From IMG/VR virus record IMGVR_UViG_3300025674_000003: a DNA stretch of 20,000 nucleotides; one strand, 5' to 3'. Shown piece by piece: positions 1 to 18,095 of the stretch (position 1 is the stretch's first letter; the number at the start of each line of letters is the position of its first letter). This DNA comes from an uncultured virus (IMG/VR IMGVR_UViG_3300025674_000003) (Duplodnaviria > Heunggongvirae > Uroviricota > Caudoviricetes > Crassvirales). Below the pieces are notes generated by a model. The model made no database searches and was not told the DNA's origin. It saw only the letters and a program-made list of their open reading frames with translations. The translations under genes and the position numbers were made by a program.

Positions 1-2376
1 GTTTTCAGATGTATATAAGACTTCAAACTTTACAACATCACCAACCGGTATCCCTGTTGAAAAAGTTACTTGTACATAATTATTTGAATTAGCTATAGTA
101 TATGAAGTACTATCTTGTAGTATCCAACCATTACCGCTATCAACTAAAACTCTAAAAGTATTATCATTTGAATTAGCATCTGCATACAATATAGTTGTTG
201 AAAAAACTGTTTGATTAGCAGTTGCTATTATACACTCTGTACCTAAACTTCTAAAATAAGCATATAATGCACTTGGTGCACTTGCAGTTTCTGTGTCTAC
301 TTCATAGTAATTACCTTGAGCATATGCTCCTGGATAACCAGATATACCTATATCACCTTCTGGTATTTGTTGTAAGTAATTTAAAGTAAGAGTATCACCC
401 GTCCAAGGTTGAAGTGAATTGCTAAAACTTATTGGTTTGTAATCGTGATAAAAATTAGAACCAGGTTGAGGATCACCATTTGAATCTAAAACACCATCAT
501 AATTAGATAATACAACATCAGTTTGCCTACCATATTTGTCAGACAAAACAATACCGACTTGATAATTTCTATTTTGTTTTACTGAATGCTGAGGATATTC
601 TATAAACTGCTGAGCGCTTTTATCAGCAACACCTACATAGTAATCTAATCCATTTGGAGCACTATGACCTTCTAGGTAATTAGCATACATTATTCTATTG
701 CCGCTTGTTTCTTGAGCTAAAGCTTTAACAGGAACTTTGTCAAATACTCTAGTCGTTTGTATTGCTGGTAAAGTTGTTATAGGTATAGTTGATTGATAAG
801 AGTATTGATAAATGTTAGTATTATTTAATGAGTTTATAAAACTAGAATCTACTTTTACTGTTTCAATAACTTGATATGCTTGAGTATCTGACTGCTTGTA
901 TATTATGTCTATAGCTTTTACCTTATACTTATTTATTATATCAATACATGGTAACTCAATATTTAAAACAGCGTTGTTTATAGAGTTCTGCATAAACTCT
1001 ACAACACTAGTTATAAAAGCTTGATTTTCATCATCATTAACAAACTCACCTTCTTGGTAAGGTATAAATACATCTTGACTAAATGGAGCTATAGTTGAAT
1101 ATTCGTTATCATCAAATTTAAATCTATAAGAAAATCTAACAAATCTTTCTGATAAATAATCAGGATCTCCATTCCAACCAGTGTAATTAGTGTTTCTTAA
1201 AACTCTTACAGAGTAACCATCAACTGTAGCGCTAGTACCTGTCGTAGATATGGCATTTGTAGTATTGAATTTAACAAAAGCATTTGCATTAGGATTTGAA
1301 GAATCATAAGCATCTGATGTCCAAAATCTAGTTTCTGTTGTTAAATTTAAAAAACCTTGAGGATCAGGACTTGTTGTACTGTTTCTATAACCAGCTGGTA
1401 AAACATCTGTACCGAGTTGATCATCACCAGCTCCAGAAGCCCATAAAAATTGACTTTTATAAATACTAGCCGAAGATCCAGCTGTACCTATAATACCATT
1501 CCATTCAGCTAAAGTGGGTATTCTATGACCAACAGGAGCTAAACCTCTAGGATCTATAACAGCCCATTTGTTGTATAATAAACCATATGTTACACCATTA
1601 CCATTATAATTAGCATAATAACACCATCTGCCTTGTTGATTTTGATCAGCTGTGGTCCAGTCTGCTATATTTTGAGCTTCAGGTATTGCATCTCCATTTC
1701 TATATTTTTTTACAGCTAAATTTTCTTGAGATATTTTATATATACCTATTTCTACTACTGGAGGATCAGCAGCATCAGACATTGTTGATGGTTTTAATAC
1801 TTGCTGAAAATTAGCATAATAAGAAGCTCCAGCTCTCATATTTATAAAAGATGGTGGAGAATAAGGAGCAAATTTAGCTACAGATATTTGATCTTCATTA
1901 GTATAATAACCTAATGGTTTATCTACATTTATTTTTCTAGGTTGATTTCTATTGTCTGTAAAAAATAATTGGTTTTCTATTAAACTTATTCCAGACATGA
2001 AAAAATCATTATTACCAGAAAAATTTAAAAAACTACCATTTACTAATTCTGTTCTATTATTTGTTAATATGTTAACATAACCAATACTACACAAAGCGTT
2101 TAAAGGCGCGGGATCAGTTCCAAAATAATTAGTTCTAAAATAATATAATCTATTATTAGCTTCATCTTCGTAAACACCAATTATAATATGACCACTAGCT
2201 GGTGTTACGCCTGTTGTTGAATTACCTAATATAGACTCAACAGCACCAACATCGCTATTTTCTGATCTAGATATAGCTATGTTTAAAGCATCTCTATATT
2301 CGTTATTTGGAATTAGTCTTTCATCTAAGTCTTTATTCATTTTAGACTTAATGAAACTATTTTTAGCTTCTGCCAT
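1..2376 (-). CDS. Tail stabilization / muzzle-type protein (crAss-like, P22 gp10-analogous), partial: runs off the left end of the window
   Basis: Not in the ORF track because it has no stop in the window. ATG at 2376. Hand translation gives MAEAKNSFIKSKMNKDLDERLIPNNEYRDALNIAISRSENSDVGAVE..., VRFSYRFKFDDNEYSTIAPFSQ, RVFDKVPVKALAQETSGNRIMYANY and SVKQNRNYQVGIVLSDKYGRQT, motifs I recognise from crAss-like stabilization proteins. No stop was found in the translated 1800-1 segment. Sits after the ring-protein genes. Confidence 0.85.
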   Translation of the reverse strand, partial: MAEAKNSFIKSKMNKDLDERLIPNNEYRDALNIAISRSENSDVGAVESILGNSTTGVTPASGHIIIGVYEDEANNRLYYFRTNYFGTDPAPLNALCSIGYVNILTNNRTELVNGSFLNFSGNNDFFMSGISLIENQLFFTDNRNQPRKINVDKPLGYYTNEDQISVAKFAPYSPPSFINMRAGASYYANFQQVLKPSTMSDAADPPVVEIGIYKISQENLAVKKYRNGDAIPEAQNIADWTTADQNQQGRWCYYANYNGNGVTYGLLYNKWAVIDPRGLAPVGHRIPTLAEWNGIIGTAGSSASIYKSQFLWASGAGDDQLGTDVLPAGYRNSTTSPDPQGFLNLTTETRFWTSDAYDSSNPNANAFVKFNTTNAISTTGTSATVDGYSVRVLRNTNYTGWNGDPDYLSERFVRFSYRFKFDDNEYSTIAPFSQDVFIPYQEGEFVNDDENQAFITSVVEFMQNSINNAVLNIELPCIDIINKYKVKAIDIIYKQSDTQAYQVIETVKVDSSFINSLNNTNIYQYSYQSTIPITTLPAIQTTRVFDKVPVKALAQETSGNRIMYANYLEGHSAPNGLDYYVGVADKSAQQFIEYPQHSVKQNRNYQVGIVLSDKYGRQTDVVLSNYDGVLDSNGDPQPGSNFYHDYKPISFSNSLQPWTGDTLTLNYLQQIPEGDIGISGYPGAYAQGNYYEVDTETASAPSALYAYFRSLGTECIIATANQTVFSTTILYADANSNDNTFRVLVDSGNGWILQDSTSYTIANSNNYVQVTFSTGIPVGDVVKFEVLYTSEN
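1198..1755 (-). other. FISUMP / Fib_succ_major (Fibrobacter succinogenes major paralogous) domain inserted in the tail stabilization protein
   Basis: Hand translation: VEIGIYKISQENLAVKKYRNGDAIP...WCYY...YGLLYNKWAVIDPRGLAPVGHRIPTLAEW...LPAGYR...TRFWTS...GYSVRVL. This follows the family's motif series (ENL..YRNGD.IP; YG.LYN(W).AV; P.GW.IP..EW; LP.GYR; FWTS; GYSVRC). Confidence 0.85.
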
Positions 2377-5480: not shown

Positions 5481-6920
5481 TTATAATCCTTTAAACAATA
5501 CAAAGTTGTTAGCAGCTTGTGTTACTAAACATCTTTCAGATAGGAAGTTTACTTCCATAGCATCTAGATCAGATGTAAAAGCACCACCAGCAGAACCAGT
5601 TAACCATGATTTCATTCTTCTGTCATCACCTTGAGAAGCTCTATATCTTACGTGTAAGAAAGGTCTTCTAATGTTAGTACCTAAGATTTGATCATATACT
5701 GTTGAAGTTCCAGCAGGAATTAAAACACCTTCGATTGATGAAGGTCCAACCATTCCACCTCTTGTAGAAGCGTCATTTAAGTATTTCCAGTCAGTTTTGT
5801 AGAAATCATAAGATCCTCTACGGAAACCTGAAAATCCAAGGTTAAGAGCCATTTCTTCAGAATTTTCAAACAAACCAAAAGCAGTACCTCCAGCGTATCC
5901 GCCAGAAATGCTAGCTAGCATGTCATCAAAGTCAAGAGCAGTTTGTCTCTGTAAGAAAAGCATGTTTTCTTCAATAGCACCTTGAGTGTCTAAGTTTTTA
6001 AGAATTGCATCAAAAGCATCAATTCCAGCAGCAGCAGTAAAACCAGTTTGTACATTACCTCTATCATTGATAGCAGCAAATAAACCTTGAGTACCACCTA
6101 ATCCAGCAGGAATAGCAGCGTTATTTTTTAATTCTCCTTCAACCATAGCCATTTCTAGGTAATCTTCAAAACGTAGTCTTGTTTCAGACTCTGCTTTTAA
6201 ATACCATAAATAACCAGAAGTTCCGTCTTCAGTTGCAACTTCTACCCAACCGATTTGTGCCATATCAGAACCATTTACAACGTATTTGTTTCTAATAATG
6301 ATTGGTGAGTTAGAATATTGCTTAAATGAAGGATCAACACTAATATAGCCGTCTGTTGAAGTTGCACTATAATTAGGTGTTGAAGAACCTTTAGCGTATT
6401 CAGAACCATATACAAATACTTTTACTTTACCAGTTAAACCAGCAAGAGCTAAAGTATTAGCAGTATAAGGTAGAGCAGTAATTTGTCCTACACCAGCTCC
6501 ACCAGGAACAGTAGCGCTAACATAACATTTTGCTTCTACTCCATTGTCATCTAAAACTACGATAGTAGCTCCTACAGATATAACGTTAGTTACATCAGCA
6601 GCTGTACCTGTAAAATTGATAACATTACTTGCACCGTAAGCAGGTGTAAGACCAGTATAAGCTATATGTAGTCTGTTTTGCTCAGACCAAATTACTTGAT
6701 CAGAGGTCATAGGCATTTCAGCCCCTACCATACGTAAAAATCCGCCTAACGTTCTGTTTCCATAACGCTCTACTTCTTGTTCGTATACCTCAGGTAGGTA
6801 TTGTTGCGCGAAATCTACAAAATCAGCAGCAGCTTTGTCAGTCCACTGTAGATAATTGCTATTTAAGACTTCTTGCTTTTGAGATGGGACAATTGACCCA
6901 AATTGTGGTGTTAAAGCCAT
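5481..6920 (-). CDS. Major capsid protein (479 aa)
   Basis: Follows portal and scaffold and is followed by a hairpin. Motifs QQYLPEVYEQEVERYGNRT, WSEQNRLH, GYLWYLKAESETRLRFEDYLE and LNLGFSGFRRGSYDFYK are typical of Bacteroidota podophage MCPs. Confidence 0.88.
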   Translation of the reverse strand: MALTPQFGSIVPSQKQEVLNSNYLQWTDKAAADFVDFAQQYLPEVYEQEVERYGNRTLGGFLRMVGAEMPMTSDQVIWSEQNRLHIAYTGLTPAYGASNVINFTGTAADVTNVISVGATIVVLDDNGVEAKCYVSATVPGGAGVGQITALPYTANTLALAGLTGKVKVFVYGSEYAKGSSTPNYSATSTDGYISVDPSFKQYSNSPIIIRNKYVVNGSDMAQIGWVEVATEDGTSGYLWYLKAESETRLRFEDYLEMAMVEGELKNNAAIPAGLGGTQGLFAAINDRGNVQTGFTAAAGIDAFDAILKNLDTQGAIEENMLFLQRQTALDFDDMLASISGGYAGGTAFGLFENSEEMALNLGFSGFRRGSYDFYKTDWKYLNDASTRGGMVGPSSIEGVLIPAGTSTVYDQILGTNIRRPFLHVRYRASQGDDRRMKSWLTGSAGGAFTSDLDAMEVNFLSERCLVTQAANNFVLFKGL

Positions 6921-12800: not shown

Positions 12801-13074
12801 TTTTAGATCTACCTTCAGCAAAACCAGCAAAAGTTCTTTCTTTTTTAACTTCTTTTGGTTTTTCGTTTAACATATCCTCTTCTTCTTGTAAACGTTGTAA
12901 TATTTCAAAAGCATCAAATATTGCTAATTTTTTTGTTGCTGCAGCATTTTTAAGTCTGTCTGCAGATATATCATCGTCTGAATCTACAATAGGTTCTTTA
13001 GCCACCTTTATAAGCTCTTCAACAGCTACGCGCCCAGCTTGGATTATATTCTTCTTCGTTTCCTTTGTGCTCAT
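12793..13074 (-). CDS. Small helical protein immediately upstream of terL, candidate terminase small subunit (93 aa)
   Basis: Overlaps the terL start and is helical and charged. Assignment is by position only. Confidence 0.5.
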   Translation of the reverse strand: MSTKETKKNIIQAGRVAVEELIKVAKEPIVDSDDDISADRLKNAAATKKLAIFDAFEILQRLQEEEDMLNEKPKEVKKERTFAGFAEGRSKNV

Positions 13075-13624
13075 ATTTAATTACAATATCATTTGATTTC
13101 ATACAATAAACTCTTTCATTTTCAATAATAAAATCCCATTCGCTGTTAGGTGTAAAACCCACAACATCACCAGGATTAATATTAAGCGCTTCTAATGAGT
13201 TATTACTATATTTTAGTATACCTATAAGGGCTTGTTCTTTTTTGTTGCTTAATTTATCTTTATTTATTATCGGTTTAACAAAACATCTATCACCAAACGA
13301 GTGATAACCATTATTGTTTTTATAAAGATATATTTGATCTAAGCTACAAAAATACAAATCATTTTTAAAATATGATCTGCTTTTTTTCTTAACACCTTTC
13401 ATACCGTAAAATGTTCTAAACACATTTTGATGTACTATTATTAAATCACCTTTTTTTATAGGTGTTTTAAAAGCTTTAGGTGTTTCTATAACCTCGGCTA
13501 TTCTATTAACAAACTTCCAGTTTTCAACCTTAGTATTTAATACTAATTCTTTATCATCTACTTTTATGCTATTAGAATATTCTTTACCAAATGGTTTTAC
13601 TATAAAATCATATAGACTTTTCAT
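13019..13624 (-). CDS. GroES/Cpn10-like co-chaperonin, apparently two tandem domains (201 aa)
   Basis: Second half FGDRCFVKP...GILKY...INPGDVVGF...FIIENERVYCMKSNDIV mirrors GroES (PLGDRVLVK...VKVGDKVLF...DGEEYLIM.E.DI). First half FIVKP...AEVIETP...IKKGDLIIVH repeats the pattern. Confidence 0.65.
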   Translation of the reverse strand: MKSLYDFIVKPFGKEYSNSIKVDDKELVLNTKVENWKFVNRIAEVIETPKAFKTPIKKGDLIIVHQNVFRTFYGMKGVKKKSRSYFKNDLYFCSLDQIYLYKNNNGYHSFGDRCFVKPIINKDKLSNKKEQALIGILKYSNNSLEALNINPGDVVGFTPNSEWDFIIENERVYCMKSNDIVIKYEHKGNEEEYNPSWARSC

Positions 13625-14688: not shown

Positions 14689-15153
14689 TTATTTTTTACT
14701 TATTGTTTTAAATTTTTCTGCACCTCGTGAACCAAAATAAGCCACGTAAACTGTAATTAAAAGAGATTTTAATAGATCAACCCAACCGCCATCAACATCA
14801 AACTGTATATTAGAGCTTTCAAGAACTATTAAAATTATTAAAGATATAGTTAAAAATATAAGAGTCATAGGGCGTGTGTTTTTAGACAACCATGAATCTG
14901 ATTTCATATCACTATCCCAACGCTTAGATATTTCTTGCATTTCTACCATGTCTTGCTCTAATAACTTTAAAGCTTTTTCTTTATCTTCTGGTGGTAAAAT
15001 TACAGGATCTTCTTTTTTTATTAAGTTTTTAACTACACCTAATAAGCCTTGATCTGGTAAAACATCAGATATACCATCAACTAGCTTAGGCGCAGTTCCT
15101 AATAAAAACTGACCGACTTTTGTATCTTTAAACTTCTTTTTATTATCTGGCAT
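14689..15153 (-). CDS. Holin, GTA_holin_3TM-like family (154 aa)
   Basis: Motifs RWDSDMKSDSWLSKNTRP, then a TM helix, a second TM helix and YFGSRGAEK, characteristic of this holin family. Confidence 0.75.
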   Translation of the reverse strand: MPDNKKKFKDTKVGQFLLGTAPKLVDGISDVLPDQGLLGVVKNLIKKEDPVILPPEDKEKALKLLEQDMVEMQEISKRWDSDMKSDSWLSKNTRPMTLIFLTISLIILIVLESSNIQFDVDGGWVDLLKSLLITVYVAYFGSRGAEKFKTISKK

Positions 15154-15593
15154 TATTTTTTAATTACCTTTAGTATTGATTGATAAATTTTATTTATATC
15201 GAATGTATTTTTTGCTAAAGATACAGAATTTTTATTTATATCTTCGTAAGCTTTTACAGACGACTTACTAAGTTTTAAATGAGCAGCGTGTGATTTATTT
15301 ATTAAATTAATATTCTCAACAGCTTTCTGTATTTTATTAGCGTATTCTTTTTGAGCTTTAACTATTTCACTAGTGTCATAAGGTTCATAAATTACACGCG
15401 AGTTATCGTTTGTATCTTTAGTTGTCTCGAATGCAGAATAAGCAAAAACAATAGCTTCTGTTATCATACCTATTGTTAATAATAATGAGCCATATGGCCA
15501 GTGTTGAATTTTAGCAAGAGCTCCTAAAATAACGACTGCAGCTCCGAGCCCGTAGAGCATATTAGTAAAGTCTAATTTTAAATTTTTTAACAT
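15153..15593 (-). CDS. gldL: GldL/PorL-like protein (gliding motility / type IX secretion motor stator subunit homologue), 146 aa
   Basis: NMLYGLGAAVVILGALAKIQHW...LLTIGMITEAIVFAYSAFE closely matches the two-TM N-terminus of GldL as recalled (NFAYGMGAAVVIVGALFKITH...IGLLTEALIFALSAFE). A coiled coil follows, then SLAKNTFDINKIYQSIL, resembling the GldL terminal helix (..N..SLN.VYGGML). Confidence 0.9.
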   Translation of the reverse strand: MLKNLKLDFTNMLYGLGAAVVILGALAKIQHWPYGSLLLTIGMITEAIVFAYSAFETTKDTNDNSRVIYEPYDTSEIVKAQKEYANKIQKAVENINLINKSHAAHLKLSKSSVKAYEDINKNSVSLAKNTFDINKIYQSILKVIKK

Positions 15594-15636
15594 AACATTT
15601 AATTTAATTATTTATATATAATCTATATATAAATAG

Positions 15637-15649
15637 TTACATGTTATTT
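15637..15649 (-). promoter_or_regulatory. Copy 2 of 13-bp intergenic motif AAATAACATGTAA (candidate phage promoter), upstream of the gldL-like gene
   Basis: Exact match to 4647-4659, in a 70-bp very AT-rich intergenic gap. Confidence 0.4.
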
Positions 15650-15663
15650 TAATTAATTACGAT

Positions 15664-17625
15664 TTACTTCTTTTTATCTCCACTAAAAACCATTTTACTA
15701 CCAAATAAACCACCTGTAACAGCTGGTAATTTATTCATTGATTTAGCTAAAGAAGAAAAATTACTTTTAGATTTATCCATAAAATCAAAAATTCTAGTAC
15801 CACTTACATTTACATCTTTACCATCGCTTTTTAACACGGCTTGAGTTACTGGATTTTTATCAAAATAATTTTTAGCTTTAGATAAAATCTGTGGAGTTAT
15901 TTTATCATAAGGATTTTTTATAAAACCTTGATCAAGCAAAGATTGTCTTAATTCTCCCGCAAAAGCCCTAGGCTCCATATTTCCACTTCCTCCATATTTA
16001 AAATAATCGTAATCTATGTCTGATGCTGGTTGATTTGCTAAATGATCTTGAAATCGTGAGTCTGCTGCTTTGTGATTTTTAGCAAAATCATCGCTATGAA
16101 CATTTAGATTATCTCTTGCAGATAGCAGATCATCATATTTTTTGTTATAATCTAAAACCTCTTTGCTAGGTTTAATAGCACTAGATAACTCTCTGTCAAG
16201 AGGCGTTGTTCTACCAACTTGAAAACCGTGTTGCTGTTCGTGAGCATAGATTGTTTTTGGTTTAGCTATATTTTTATCTCCTAAAATAAAATTACCTTTA
16301 TTTAATTGAGAGGCATTTTGAACGCCTTGTAATGAAAATCTATCAACATCATTAGTTTTTTTAAAACCACCAAAAGTAGCATTGGAATCTAAATATTCTC
16401 TAGGAACAGAATTATATAATATGTCTTTTGCTTCACTGTAATTTAATTTCCCTCCTTTTATAGCCTCAGCTGCCCTTTCATTTAAATTAGGTTTAGACAT
16501 TTCTTGAATTCTAAAATTAACATTTTTTTGCGCTTGTTCAGCTAAGTCAGCATCAAATAGTTTTTTTGTTTTTGTGCCAAGACCGCCTAAAAAGTTTTGT
16601 TCAATTTCTAAAAATTCATTACCAGGTGTTTGTTTTCTTATAAATGGATGGGCGTGTGCTTCAGGGATTTGCATTGTTTTTCTTAATTTTTCCATTTCAC
16701 CCTGTAAATAACCTAACTCTTGATCATATAATCTTTTTTGACCTTCAGGTGTATTTAATCGCTCCATTGTTTTTAATCTTTCAAATTTACTAACCTCAGC
16801 GTTTTTACTTAAATCTTCAAGAGTATTATACATAGATTCTCTAGTTTTTGGATTAAATCTTCCAAATATACCTGGTGATTCTGGTAATTTACTAGCCGCA
16901 CTAGCAGCTTCGTCTCCTTTTGCAGCCAAACTATAAACTAAATCATCTGATTTGTTTGCTAGTCCTTTTGCTAATTTAGCTCCTTTTGCACCTTTAGTTA
17001 ATAATCCAGCTCCAAAGAGTAAATTGGCTGGATCTGCTACTATATCCATAGCTGTATTTAAAGAACCTCCTAAATCCCATCCAGGTTTATCTTCAAAACC
17101 TATTGTTTCAGATGGTAGTCTTTGTGATCCAGGTGTAAGAGCGTTTGCAAAATTATAAGGATTTCCTCTCAAAGCTTCTATACCTTCAACCGCAAGTGAT
17201 TGAGGAGCTTGAAGTGTTGTCATTACCATGGATGCAGGCTGTTCTGCTAATATACCTGTTACCATATCCATAGCATCACCTGCTAAACCTTCTCTAGTTT
17301 GAGCTCTTCTTCTAACACCTCTACCAATTGCCCCTGAGTCGTTAAAATATTCTTTTTGTTGATCAGAAAGTTCATCAAATAAAGGATATTGATTATAATC
17401 TACATCTGATCTTACTACTACTTCATCAAGATTTGGTCTATGTATCGAACCTTCTCCAAAGTATTTAGCATATTCCGCATCTGACATACCAGAATCGCTT
17501 TGTGTAGTATAAACTAAATCATCAACTATTTGTTGACCATCTTTTTTGCTATGAGGTTTGCCTTCATGCATTTTAACAGGACTAGAACTTCTTAGTTTTC
17601 CGAAATAATTTTTTTTAAGCCCCAT
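15664..17625 (-). CDS. Probable internal virion (cargo/ejection) protein with a C-terminal zincin-like HExxH motif (653 aa)
   Basis: YAHEQQHG (16228-16242) followed by MEPRAF. Also a glycine-rich hydrophobic segment DPANLLFGAGLLTKGAKGAK, an LDEVVV motif and N-terminal SSPVK. Confidence 0.5.
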   Translation of the reverse strand: MGLKKNYFGKLRSSSPVKMHEGKPHSKKDGQQIVDDLVYTTQSDSGMSDAEYAKYFGEGSIHRPNLDEVVVRSDVDYNQYPLFDELSDQQKEYFNDSGAIGRGVRRRAQTREGLAGDAMDMVTGILAEQPASMVMTTLQAPQSLAVEGIEALRGNPYNFANALTPGSQRLPSETIGFEDKPGWDLGGSLNTAMDIVADPANLLFGAGLLTKGAKGAKLAKGLANKSDDLVYSLAAKGDEAASAASKLPESPGIFGRFNPKTRESMYNTLEDLSKNAEVSKFERLKTMERLNTPEGQKRLYDQELGYLQGEMEKLRKTMQIPEAHAHPFIRKQTPGNEFLEIEQNFLGGLGTKTKKLFDADLAEQAQKNVNFRIQEMSKPNLNERAAEAIKGGKLNYSEAKDILYNSVPREYLDSNATFGGFKKTNDVDRFSLQGVQNASQLNKGNFILGDKNIAKPKTIYAHEQQHGFQVGRTTPLDRELSSAIKPSKEVLDYNKKYDDLLSARDNLNVHSDDFAKNHKAADSRFQDHLANQPASDIDYDYFKYGGSGNMEPRAFAGELRQSLLDQGFIKNPYDKITPQILSKAKNYFDKNPVTQAVLKSDGKDVNVSGTRIFDFMDKSKSNFSSLAKSMNKLPAVTGGLFGSKMVFSGDKKK

Positions 17626-17627
17626 AA

Positions 17628-18095
17628 TTAAGAATTTTTAGTTTTTTGATAAGCTTCTTTTTCCCAAGGTAAATTTTTTGCACCTTCATTCATATCGTCT
17701 CTTGAATATGTTTTACCTTCCCAATAAACATTGTCGTCATCATAACTTAGCCTACCATCTTTTATTTGTTTAATATGCACCATTTCATGATCTATGACAT
17801 CTTGCTTTTGTTTTGGATCTTTAATGTCTTTATTTATAAGTATACTACCATTGTTAGTAGCCATACCTAAAGTATCATCACCCATATCTACGTGCATTAT
17901 AGGTGTATTGGAATTTTCTTCATTATATGGTGATCCTTTCATTTTAAAACCCATTTTTAAAGGAGAAGTTCTTTTACTTTTAGCTGCTTTTAAAGAAGCG
18001 TCATTTCCAGTTCCAGCGCCAGATCTTTTTCTTGCTTTGTTCCACTCAGGACTATGCATTAAAGAACTCCAACAGTGTTTTATTGGTGAACCCAT
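17628..18095 (-). CDS. Small zincin-like metalloprotease (155 aa)
   Basis: LGMA...ILIN...VIDHEMVHIKQ (HExxH at 17775-17789) and a downstream LPWEKEAY third-ligand motif. Confidence 0.7.
   Translation of the reverse strand: MGSPIKHCWSSLMHSPEWNKARKRSGAGTGNDASLKAAKSKRTSPLKMGFKMKGSPYNEENSNTPIMHVDMGDDTLGMATNNGSILINKDIKDPKQKQDVIDHEMVHIKQIKDGRLSYDDDNVYWEGKTYSRDDMNEGAKNLPWEKEAYQKTKNS

Follow-up and report, generated by a model that had tools for sequence, protein, structure and literature searches.

A shortened gldL gene and its setting

We analysed a stretch of 20,000 nucleotides, hereafter the window, of the uncultured virus record IMGVR_UViG_3300025674_000003, and the features of the locus are collected in Table 1. 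The record as a whole is 56 kb long, of the flavobacterial podovirus type, and is classed in IMG/VR as linear and 87% complete. An open reading frame of 146 aa, with an ATG start and a TAA stop, occupies the minus strand at 15153..15593; the plus strand across these bases carries many stops. The first-pass annotation, made from the letters of the window alone, had called its product a phage-encoded GldL, and the HMM search bore this out, as two curated cut-offs were exceeded. The protein matched Pfam GldL_N (PF22827) with an E value of 1.8e-23 and 82.9 bits (gathering score 24) over residues 13-68, corresponding to profile positions 1-56 of 62. It also matched NCBIfam TIGR03513, the PorL/GldL equivalog, in two stretches with 88.6 bits (cut-off 68.3), the best stretch covering model positions 3-61 of 247 and most of the model being unmatched. 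A phmmer search of PDB chains retrieved 6ys8_G, the GldL of Flavobacterium johnsoniae, with an E value of 2.8e-14. Judged by these matches, the 146-aa phage protein, here termed mini-GldL, is a shortened homologue of GldL and belongs to the GldL family, whose cellular members form the stator ring of the proton-driven GldL5-GldM2 motor.

Table 1. Features of the mini-GldL locus, with positions in the window
Feature	Position	Strand	Evidence
154-aa membrane protein, PHROG family 3427 ('holin')	14689..15153	minus	phrog_3427, E 1.3e-17
mini-GldL gene (P0001)	15153..15593	minus	ORF; GldL_N, TIGR03513 and 6ys8_G matches
Long cytoplasmic helix (residues 74-145)	15159..15374	minus	AlphaFold2; alignments A1 and A5
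Linker (residues 56-73, starting with E56 = E59)	15375..15428	minus	low pLDDT; alignment gap
Transmembrane helix 2 (residues 35-55; E46 = F. johnsoniae E49)	15429..15491	minus	AlphaFold2
Transmembrane helix 1 (residues 6-30; N11, Y14, K28)	15504..15578	minus	AlphaFold2; GldL TMH1 of 6ys8_G
AT-rich 70-base spacer upstream of gldL	15594..15663	minus	sequence; transcriptome contig break
Cassette partner (653 aa, no known family)	15664..17625	minus	no Pfam or PHROG match

The closest known system is the cellular GldL/PorL (F. johnsoniae, PDB 6YS8; also 7SAU, 7SAT, 7SAZ and 7SAX), from which the phage protein differs in its length, the cellular proteins having about 205-220 aa, and in being encoded by a phage gene that lies outside any gldKLMN operon. 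Matches to the GldM, GldK and GldN families were absent from the whole 56-kb record, which extends the earlier remark that the window holds no gldK, gldM or gldN. The proposed placement in a virion gene cluster holds only loosely: the neighbours are phage genes, and the place of gldL is upstream of the terminase, amid small proteins of unknown function and beside the gene of the PHROG 'holin' family.

This neighbour raises the possibility that hairpin rings of mini-GldL lacking a matching GldM plug depolarise the membrane and aid the holin-like protein in lysis timing. The stop codon of gldL overlaps the start of the holin-family gene by one base (TAATG), the proton-binding Glu is retained, and mini-GldL weakly resembles the Rz-like spanin family phrog_739 (E 4.1e-4). 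We nevertheless consider such a proton leak improbable, as the two genes are not always neighbours (3.7 kb separates them in the sister phage lineage described below, unlike in the window), the holin-family gene is found in relatives both with and without gldL, the endolysin of the window phage is about 31 kb distant, and the C-terminal homology to the cytoplasmic part of GldL conflicts with a spanin topology.

The mini-GldL gene belongs to an accessory two-gene cassette that is absent in most relatives; gldL was found in 4 of 80 loci of relatives and is therefore dispensable for the phage. Its cassette partner is 600-680 aa long across the lineage. An open reading frame of this type precedes gldL in the diverged gldL-carrying relatives wherever upstream sequence is available, and it is missing along with gldL in all 14 long relatives devoid of the latter. 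We do not call the 653-aa protein a metallopeptidase, a candidate which was dropped because the HExxH motif is lost in the 680-aa counterpart of locus L017. Comparison with the 308-aa protein encoded upstream of gldL in the sister lineage gave no significant similarity (BLASTP E 0.064). Its look-alikes in the Atlas, a viral hypothetical cluster (0.96) and LPD23 (0.87), are leads only.

Metatranscriptome contigs from one library (run X4) cover gldL, end at 15633 and resume at 15670, and contigs of two DNA runs continue through the intervening spacer. The spacer is a possible promoter region, but this is a weak hint, as are expression and the transcript start, coming from a single RNA study whose library may contain DNA. 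A scan for sigma-70-type promoters and terminators gave counts equal to those in shuffled sequence. The habitat labels of the sequencing runs are freshwater, seawater, salt marsh and sponge.

Architecture of the phage protein

The length of 146 aa, the residues N11, Y14, K28, H31, E46 and E56 and the stretch DNSRVIYEPY, all pointed out earlier, are present in the translation of 15153..15593. By HMMER alignment to 6ys8_G these residues correspond to N10, Y13, K27, H30, E49 and E59 of F. johnsoniae GldL, so that all residues with a known part in proton coupling and GldM contact are retained. In the AlphaFold2 model (mean pLDDT 69.3), residues 6-30, 35-55 and 74-145 are helical and residues 56-73 form a low-confidence linker, and the first two helices, which align to GldL, agree with the two transmembrane segments that had been proposed. 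H31 lies in the periplasmic loop immediately preceding transmembrane helix 2, and E46 is invariant, in 21/21 rows of phage-type mini-GldLs (alignment A3) and in 59/59 rows of alignment A5. The hairpin is 57-68% identical to that of cellular GldL of Flavobacteriaceae.

The linker, with pLDDT below 50 at residues 59-70, is the most variable region among relatives and marks the site of an internal deletion relative to cellular GldL (alignment A1, a gap of about 59 columns); together with a further 7 alignment columns, about 65 cytoplasmic residues are absent. The phage protein is thus without the full cytoplasmic domain of about 150 residues, which comprises the DW.LVYPEL motif and conserved middle helices. 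The motif had been described as degenerate, and in fact DNSRVIYE matches it at 4 of 8 positions, so that DNSRVIYEPY (residues 63-72) is possibly a vestige of it, at most. The shortening of the cytoplasmic part could also be specified in alignments of 24 and 59 sequences, as a deletion with the C-terminal third kept. Residues 74-145 are homologous to this third and end in the conserved terminal helix, and Y84, A91, N99, Q105, Y137, L141, A143 and M144 hardly vary among the 59 phage and cellular rows; this C-terminal region also gives a second HMMER stretch to 6ys8_G, which is weak when taken alone (8.1 bits). The short coiled coil and GldL-like terminal helix noted before are modelled as one long helix, which takes up the whole of residues 74-145. 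Taken together, mini-GldL resembles cellular GldL in its two-helix hairpin, six motor residues and C-terminal third with the terminal helix, and differs from it in being without the roughly 65 residues after transmembrane helix 2, that is, most of DW.LVYPEL and the next conserved helices.

Authenticity and selection

One alternative is that there is no working phage gene here, the locus being chimeric through misassembly, contaminating host DNA or a passenger in decay. The record is linear and 87% complete, and most relatives are without the gene, which would suit such an origin. However, the same gene arrangement was found in five near-identical viral contigs of other samples, and both gldL borders are spanned, with 0 differences, by contigs from two further DNA runs, which answers the question of a chimeric assembly posed by the first-pass annotation. 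Furthermore, 11 diverged viral contigs carry the mini-GldL gene at the same location. All nine distinct alleles are intact, and the whole-gene dN/dS is 0.17-0.40 (pairs with dS 0.33-0.71), far below 1; the decay or neutral evolution considered earlier is thus not what we observed in the relatives. We find an artefact or a passenger scarcely credible, and on these sequence comparisons mini-GldL is a real phage gene, conserved and under purifying selection.

The constraint is unevenly distributed, with dN/dS of 0.02-0.15 in codons 1-57, which encode the hairpin, and 0.38-0.81 in the remainder, so part of the cytoplasmic half may be under little constraint. This bears upon another reading, in which the hairpin merely holds at the membrane a terminal helix that sequesters a partner of GldL in the cytoplasm, for instance a PorX-type response regulator, and GldM is not the target. 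Some version of the terminal helix persists in all phage lineages apart from the shortest, and suitable contacts are known: the target of PorX at the PorL C terminus is a hydrophobic patch, and in F. johnsoniae PorX binds to GldL in the cytoplasmic domain of the latter (PMC5005315 and PMC10951265, in excerpt). On the other hand, the hairpin is the most constrained part, motor residues would be needless in a mere anchor, and the PorL patch (residues 279-298) is mostly outside the segment covered by the alignment with the phage protein, which makes a decoy of this kind highly improbable.

Mini-GldLs of a sister lineage and of other viruses

A sister phage lineage (loci L021/L022 and L238-L244), whose large terminase is 73% identical to that of the window phage and which belongs to the same phage group, encodes a 133-aa GldL followed by an intact four-domain GldM in 7/7 loci. 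The sister mini-GldL is 41% identical to the window protein and, like the window family, is cut at the same place and begins with MLK; unlike the window protein, it has a terminal helix almost identical to the cellular one. The GldM, of 530 aa, starts 43 bases after gldL, has R9 and Y17, and exceeds the cut-offs of all four Pfam domains. Both genes have dN/dS of about 0.1 (GldL 0.04-0.15, GldM 0.06-0.15), and by its sequence the pair resembles a full stator unit made by the phage.

Mini-GldLs of 84-112 aa occur in at least four other, unrelated groups of viral contigs, and the design of a hairpin and a terminal helix with the middle lost recurs in them. Each of the 7 phage proteins tested passed GldL_N, with 63-90 bits and ending at profile positions 44-56 of 62. 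No match was obtained when the whole window (megablast) and the window protein (tblastn) were compared with 50,697 deposited phage records, nor with the 112-aa mini-GldL, and the sister GldM gave two weak partial matches only, in gut phage records. The survey of phage genomes for gldL that had been suggested was therefore positive in diverged viral contigs at the same locus and negative in the deposited phage records. Of 201 genomes of Flavobacteriaceae, 197 have GldL_N; the best matches listed lie in frames of 181-278 aa, and among these best matches no shortened, phage-like GldL form occurred in the 201 genomes sampled. In the five multi-copy genomes checked, the extra GldL_N copies (open frames 68-218 aa) are, like the phage protein, small proteins built on the GldL hairpin; they are weak matches of 21-35 bits. 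The phage protein reaches 83 bits and keeps the C-terminal GldL helix.

The sister pair speaks for a replacement or booster stator, i.e. a mini-GldL which forms active motors with GldM and sustains or deregulates type IX secretion (T9SS) or gliding for nutrients or spread. In favour of it, the sister lineage has mini-GldL with an intact GldM of four Pfam domains over their cut-offs, at all its loci and under strong constraint; the accessory nature of the gene is typical of auxiliary genes; and all motor residues are kept, including E56, the counterpart of E59, which is a gliding-specific residue in F. johnsoniae (PMC8986121, in excerpt). Yet the middle cytoplasmic region, universal in cellular GldL, is missing in every phage form, so the exact cellular job would be impossible; GldL is not indicated as limiting in infection; and a search of the phage record for sorting-domain T9SS cargo, which might need the system, found none. 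We regard such a replacement as somewhat unlikely for the window protein.

Host and origin

The closest cellular GldLs are those of Winogradskyella, Bizionia, Lacinutrix and Leeuwenhoekiella, and of 87 deposited phages whose terminase is related, 86 come with a named host genus, which is Flavobacterium, Cellulophaga, Tenacibaculum or Maribacter in each case. Both observations argue for a Flavobacteriaceae host, narrowing the gliding Bacteroidota host proposed before, and the sequence evidence points to a podovirus of lytic type as the carrier, infecting Flavobacteriaceae of marine or brackish water. In a quick tree of 93 GldL sequences the phage proteins were on long branches, the window family grouping with two metagenomic mini-forms (SH-aLRT 89) and the sister-lineage GldL standing separate (SH-aLRT 99). 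In the phylogeny which had been called for, the window family and the sister GldL are thus nested in no genus, so that the tree points to no donor and is compatible with one capture as well as with two.

Proposed action on the host motor

During infection mini-GldL would insert into the host inner membrane, where its hairpin would wrap host GldM dimers, alone or mixed with host GldL; binding of GldL to GldM is reported to need the transmembrane helices only (PMC8986121, in excerpt). The resulting stator units would be without the cytoplasmic middle module of the host, the motor would escape the control of the cell, and movement of adhesins and display of T9SS-dependent surface proteins would cease. 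Competing phages would be excluded thereby, and progeny would be spared adsorption to doomed cells. Two earlier statements behind this scheme agree with excerpts of the literature: E49, Y13, K27 and H30 are functionally important (bioRxiv 10.1101/2020.05.11.089193), the earlier list having named Y13, K27 and E49, and flavobacterial gliding or T9SS mutants resist phages (PMC9804748, bioRxiv 10.1101/2020.10.02.323337 and PMC13288928).

It seems probable to us that mini-GldL acts by way of GldM and the motor, be it to halt the motor or to sustain it. That the net effect is interference, with halted adhesins and surface display, is for us the likeliest single reading, though we stop short of calling it probable. 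Every cellular GldL conserves the middle region, and its loss would be in keeping with a subunit able to assemble but not to do the full job. Against interference, the sister mini-GldL and GldM under strong selection would fit a working stator at least equally, and the proton-carrying Glu, kept in 21/21 phage forms, would be superfluous for a mere plug; given the stator-like pair of the sister lineage, a motor that stays active under altered control is no less possible than a blocked one. The fast evolution of the cytoplasmic half and the lack of gldL in most relatives also count against interference. A complex prediction with two copies of GldM residues 1-225 and four of mini-GldL residues 1-70 scored 0.16, below the mark of 0.32, and speaks neither for nor against a complex, the native 5:2 stoichiometry exceeding these six chains.

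Relation to other phage strategies and significance

Phage proteins that block type IV pili include Tip, Aqs1, Zip and PfsE, and to our knowledge these are not homologues of their targets. Mini-GldL may follow a similar logic, in which a surface motility machine used for phage entry gets disabled, but unlike the pilus blockers it is itself homologous to a motor subunit, and its effect is predicted only. Phage shutdown of type IV pili for superinfection exclusion, acting via the pilus-assembly factors PilB and PilZ, is described in excerpts of PMC11436027, PMC8764522 and bioRxiv 10.1101/2024.03.05.583538. A Bacteroidota phage with T9SS-linked genes is known in 'Cryophage', which encodes T9SS cargo proteins with the C-terminal sorting domain (PMC7468147, in excerpt); in contrast to this cargo, the window gene encodes a motor subunit, and sorting-domain cargo was not found in the record. 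Dependence of phages on the gliding/T9SS machinery for infection has been reported (PMC9804748 and PMC13288928, in excerpt). For phage-encoded GldL or GldM motor parts, we found no report in the literature searched and none in the deposited phage records. The sister pair of mini-GldL and GldM and the occurrence of mini-GldLs in at least four unrelated viral groups are new here.

A broader proposal, which we regard as unlikely, is that unrelated Bacteroidota phages deploy rogue motor units, mini-GldL with or without GldM, which would dock on the host GldKN ring and run or lock it, the mini-GldL of the window cooperating with its cassette partner. If true, this would be the first virus to bring subunits of an ion-driven rotary motor of its host. 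GldLM is among the few known motors of this kind and drives gliding and type IX secretion, and the sequences gathered here suggest that a virus tampers with or replaces part of this host surface motor. Mini-GldL would further represent a naturally minimised and repeatedly selected GldL, in which the hairpin and the terminal helix suffice for the need of the phage, and would offer a ready means of exploring the still unexplained cytoplasmic part of GldL. Bacteroidota are major degraders of polysaccharides in the sea, in soil and in the gut, and the gene may point to a new way of taking over the host or of excluding superinfection, in phages and hosts of ecological importance.

Identity and anatomy of the shortened GldL

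The gene under study (Table) has no open frame opposite it on the plus strand, and the first-pass annotation had read its product, here called mini-GldL, as a phage-encoded GldL, a ring (stator) subunit of the type IX secretion (T9SS) and gliding motor, proposing an HMM search as a check. Mini-GldL matched both Pfam GldL_N (PF22827; E 1.8e-23, 82.9 bits, gathering score 24) and the NCBIfam equivalog TIGR03513, 'type IX secretion system motor protein PorL/GldL' (88.6 bits, cut-off 68.3), that is, above the cut-off in each case. Of the solved structures, F. johnsoniae GldL (6ys8_G, E 2.8e-14) matched best, and the next four were likewise GldL/PorL chains. In the alignment to 6ys8_G, N11, Y14, K28, H31, E46 and E56 of mini-GldL correspond to N10, Y13, K27, H30, E49 and E59 of F. 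johnsoniae, so the six residues named at first reading are present and are the correct ones. The identification of mini-GldL as a shortened GldL carried by a phage is secure, and the observation is confirmed as well above chance. Its sequence places mini-GldL in the GldL family, but its cytoplasmic domain is incomplete and its gene does not lie in a gldKLMN operon, so that two of the family's defining features are missing.

A first alignment combined mini-GldL, 11 relatives of phage type and 12 cellular GldL proteins; a second had 59 rows. The hairpin (residues 1-57) is free of gaps; past it mini-GldL lacks about 59 alignment columns of cellular GldL, which contain the greater part of the DW.LVYPEL motif together with the conserved LS.KLD..L.EAKID..L..SL..SI.NFEGAA, and 7 more columns are lost farther on. 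Over roughly the last 75 residues mini-GldL again follows the C-terminal third of its cellular counterparts, through the terminal helix (SLNGVYGGMLSAM in cellular GldL versus DINKIYQSILKVIKK in mini-GldL), and Y84, A91, N99, Q105, Y137, L141, A143 and M144 are nearly invariant across all 59 rows. As aligned, mini-GldL reads as a GldL bearing an internal deletion. The stretch DNSRVIYEPY, earlier taken as a degenerate form of the motif, does match LDWSLVYPE at four of eight positions, and may at most be a vestige of it; in other members of the phage family this vestige is gone altogether. AlphaFold2, given the 59-row alignment, returned a model of moderate confidence (mean pLDDT 69.3) with predicted helices at 6-30 and 35-55, joined through a linker of low confidence to a single long helix at 74-145.

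Table. Coordinates of the genes and loci discussed (L-numbers, loci on other contigs; G-numbers, genomes, G000 being the phage's own record; other positions are in the window)
Feature	Location	Strand	Description
Mini-GldL	15153..15593	-	146 aa, ATG start, TAA stop
Upstream protein	15664-17625	-	653 aa, no Pfam or PHROG family
155-aa protein	17628-18095
GroES-like protein	13019-13624		201 aa, adjoining terminase
Capsid-like gene	5481-6920		479 aa
Fib_succ_major virion protein	1-2376	-	1644 aa, extending past the window
GroEL	G000:C1:6268-8065		517 aa; phrog_5725, E 3.4e-130
Mini-GldL (group L024/L025)	L024:7060-7398		112 aa, own family of 11 clusters
Mini-GldL	L026:7986-8249		87 aa
Mini-GldL	L112:5968-6270		about 100 aa
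Mini-GldLs	L113:6001-6252 / L114:6001-6273		84 and 90 aa
Sister-lineage GldL and GldM	L022:8001-10037 (also L238-L244)		L022 order upstream of terminase block: M15 peptidase, DUF6321 protein, holin-like protein, 3 genes, 308-aa protein, 133-aa GldL, 43 bases, 530-aa GldM
Weak extra GldL_N matches	G111:C7:31201-31499; G101:C1:2297413-2297511; G036:C1:1725298-1726142

Phage origin, assembly and host

The IMG/VR record containing the window has 56,005 bases (an estimated 87% of the genome). The window also encodes the large terminase, the portal and several virion structural proteins, and elsewhere the record carries GroEL, GroES, ribonucleotide reductase, thymidylate synthase, primase-helicase, Erf, exonuclease and endolysin. 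The GroES has 86 aa, and a second, GroES-like protein is also encoded. One virion protein bears a Fib_succ_major domain (PF09603, E 1.7e-21), which is typical of surface proteins in Fibrobacteres and Bacteroidota.

The mini-GldL gene was found at 99-100% identity, with the same neighbour genes on both sides, in five viral contigs from other samples, and two contigs from further DNA runs, of 1663 bases (spanning 15074-16736) and 880 bases (spanning 15098-15977), showed 0 differences. The assembly here is non-chimeric, which rules out the artefact that the first-pass annotation had itself raised against its reading. The record's genome copy differs from the window at two bases, 6683 and 12555, probably one ambiguous base resolved two ways in each case; the variant at 6683 introduces a stop codon in the capsid-like gene, whose frame is intact in the window. 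One metatranscriptome library has contigs that stop at 15633 and resume at 15670, within the spacer preceding gldL, while contigs of two DNA runs are continuous across this spacer; the break hints weakly at a transcript boundary.

Terminase relatives were present in 87 deposited phage records (best 63% identical), named for Flavobacterium (68), Cellulophaga (15), Tenacibaculum (2) and Maribacter (1), with one unnamed Caudoviricetes. Winogradskyella, Bizionia, Lacinutrix, Leeuwenhoekiella and Psychroserpens have the cellular GldL hairpins nearest to that of mini-GldL, with 57-66% identity across the initial 70-83 residues. From these two lines, a marine or brackish member of Flavobacteriaceae is well supported as the host, in agreement with the gliding Bacteroidota host surmised earlier.

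Conservation, gene context and recurrence

A search of 5.8 billion proteins returned 33 clusters of mini-GldL relatives (P0002-P0034; 135-148 aa, 54-61% identity, 92-99% query coverage), all from metagenomes, many of them ocean surveys; cellular GldL (204-220 aa) matched over the first 41-50% only. Eleven diverged IMG/VR contigs retain gldL in the same position, with a large ORF upstream of it and the holin-like gene on its other side, and the gene evolves faster than the phage core, since its protein is 57-61% identical in these contigs as against 79-86% for terminase and 89-95% for portal. All nine distinct alleles are intact, and dN/dS (Nei-Gojobori, pairs with unsaturated dS of 0.33-0.71) was 0.17-0.40 for the whole gene, contradicting a degraded or neutral gene, another outcome that was to count against the original reading. 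The ratio was 0.02-0.15 for codons 1-57 and 0.38-0.81 for the remainder, which points to a strongly constrained hairpin and a cytoplasmic part under weak or shifting constraint.

The phage group is very common, because relatives of its GroES-like protein, encoded five genes downstream of gldL before the terminase, lie on at least 591 IMG/VR viral contigs. Among the best 80 such loci a GldL match was found in 4, solely the near-identical ones (4 of the 52 with at least 2.5 kb upstream). At 14 long gldL-less loci, a homologue of the 155-aa protein precedes the holin-like gene, directly in 8 and with 0.2-0.8 kb between in 5; one had no holin-like match, and none of the 14 matched the 653-aa protein. 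Diverged gldL-carrying loci have an ORF of the 653-aa kind upstream of gldL wherever sequence extends; at L017, tblastn with the 653-aa protein gave no match, and a 680-aa ORF sharing its N-terminus (MGLKKNFF) is present. From this joint presence and absence, window 15154-17627 is a two-gene accessory cassette of mini-GldL and a highly variable protein of 600-680 aa that belongs to no known family, the latter being 37-46% identical among relatives or alignable at its ends alone. Among the Atlas look-alikes of this protein are viral clusters containing 'large polyvalent protein' domains (LPD23, score 0.87), a lead only. A part for mini-GldL in proton leak or lysis timing is suggested only by the one-base overlap of gldL with the PHROG 'holin' gene and by a weak spanin-family match; the adjacency of the two genes is not conserved.

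At least four further, unrelated viral contig groups carry mini-GldLs, of 84-112 aa (Table). All of these matched GldL_N at 63-75 bits, the profile match ending at position 44-51 of 62, and most retain a short LN..Y..(I/M)L-type terminal helix; their hairpin is of a different type (GAW.KI.H), similar to GldL from outside Flavobacteriaceae, and their gene neighbours vary from case to case. In phage-type rows E46 is kept in 21 of 21, and N11, K28 and H31 each in at least 90%. When 1.84 billion cluster representatives were searched with a profile, 2173 proteins reached E <= 0.001; the best 150 include some two dozen of 87-165 aa, many covering the whole profile, and ten such clusters were found on metagenome contigs only, each of at most 67.7 kb.

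GldL_N was present in 197 of 201 sampled Flavobacteriaceae genomes, with frames of 181-278 aa among the best matches listed, and 21 genomes had more than one match. In the five genomes checked, the extra chromosomal copies are weak, partial matches to GldL_N (21-35 bits, open frames of 68-218 aa) and not phage-like mini-GldLs; some are ORFs of 68-73 aa and others are two to three clustered matches within 181-218-aa frames. Locus L034, from an Aeromicrobium MAG in an Actinomycetota-labelled bin, holds a typical Flavobacteriaceae gldL-gldM pair placed among Winogradskyella and Lacinutrix in the tree, and is probably a mis-binned contig.

A sister lineage with GldM

A search for GldM, the motor partner of GldL, gave no match in the whole record or in three long relatives, extending the earlier remark that the window has no gldM. 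The contig behind L022, whose terminase is 73% identical, matched TIGR03517 at 356.8 bits (cut-off 180), and its GldM retains R9 and Y17, with each of the four Pfam GldM domains scoring above its cut-off. A metagenome scan returned seven loci of this sister type (GldL 87-100% identical), every one with the 133-aa GldL followed by a full GldM. The other 73 loci had full-length GldL (estimated 207-316 aa) or were contig-end fragments, 68 with a GldM match downstream, and on that ground are taken to be cellular. The phage GldM was at best 49% identical (Dokdonia) to the 72 cellular GldM compared. With dN/dS of 0.04-0.15 for GldL and 0.06-0.15 for GldM (pairs with dS of at least 0.06), both genes are under strong purifying selection; from this and the seven intact loci, the sister phages maintain an apparently complete stator unit with a shortened GldL. 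The intact, strongly selected GldM and the proton-carrying Glu retained in all phage forms favour an active unit, and we accordingly place the odds of a replacement free of cellular control nearly level with those of interference with the host motor.

Possible function and significance

Published work reports that E49 of F. johnsoniae GldL is essential and Y13 important, and that K27 and H30 of the periplasmic loop contact GldM (bioRxiv 10.1101/2020.05.11.089193); that E49A abolishes secretion and gliding and E59A adhesin movement alone, GldL binding GldM via transmembrane helices only (PMC8986121); that the GldL/PorL cytoplasmic domain binds the response regulator PorX (PMC10951265; PMC5005315); and that the large cytoplasmic complex of P. 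gingivalis requires both PorL and PorM (PMC9170169). Going by its residues, mini-GldL has everything that this literature links to ring formation, proton coupling and GldM contact, without the middle of the cytoplasmic domain. We infer that it would wrap GldM dimers, giving stator units without the host's cytoplasmic module; such units may interfere with the motor, stopping adhesin movement and the display of T9SS-dependent receptors and hence excluding other phages. We lean to interference as the direction of effect because the conserved middle region is missing from every phage form, and because gliding/T9SS loss is a known flavobacterial route to phage resistance (PMC9804748; bioRxiv 10.1101/2020.10.02.323337; PMC13288928).

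No description of a phage-encoded GldL or GldM was found in the open-access papers and preprints searched, and the deposited phage records searched hold neither a mini-GldL gene nor a phage-borne GldM. The nearest published case is a phage-encoded T9SS cargo (PMC7468147), whereas here the phage gene encodes a motor subunit. Mini-GldL is thus a variant of the known GldL family in a setting, a virus, for which no earlier description was found. The phage-borne shortened GldL recurs over several phage lineages, and the sister lineage adds to it the partner subunit GldM.
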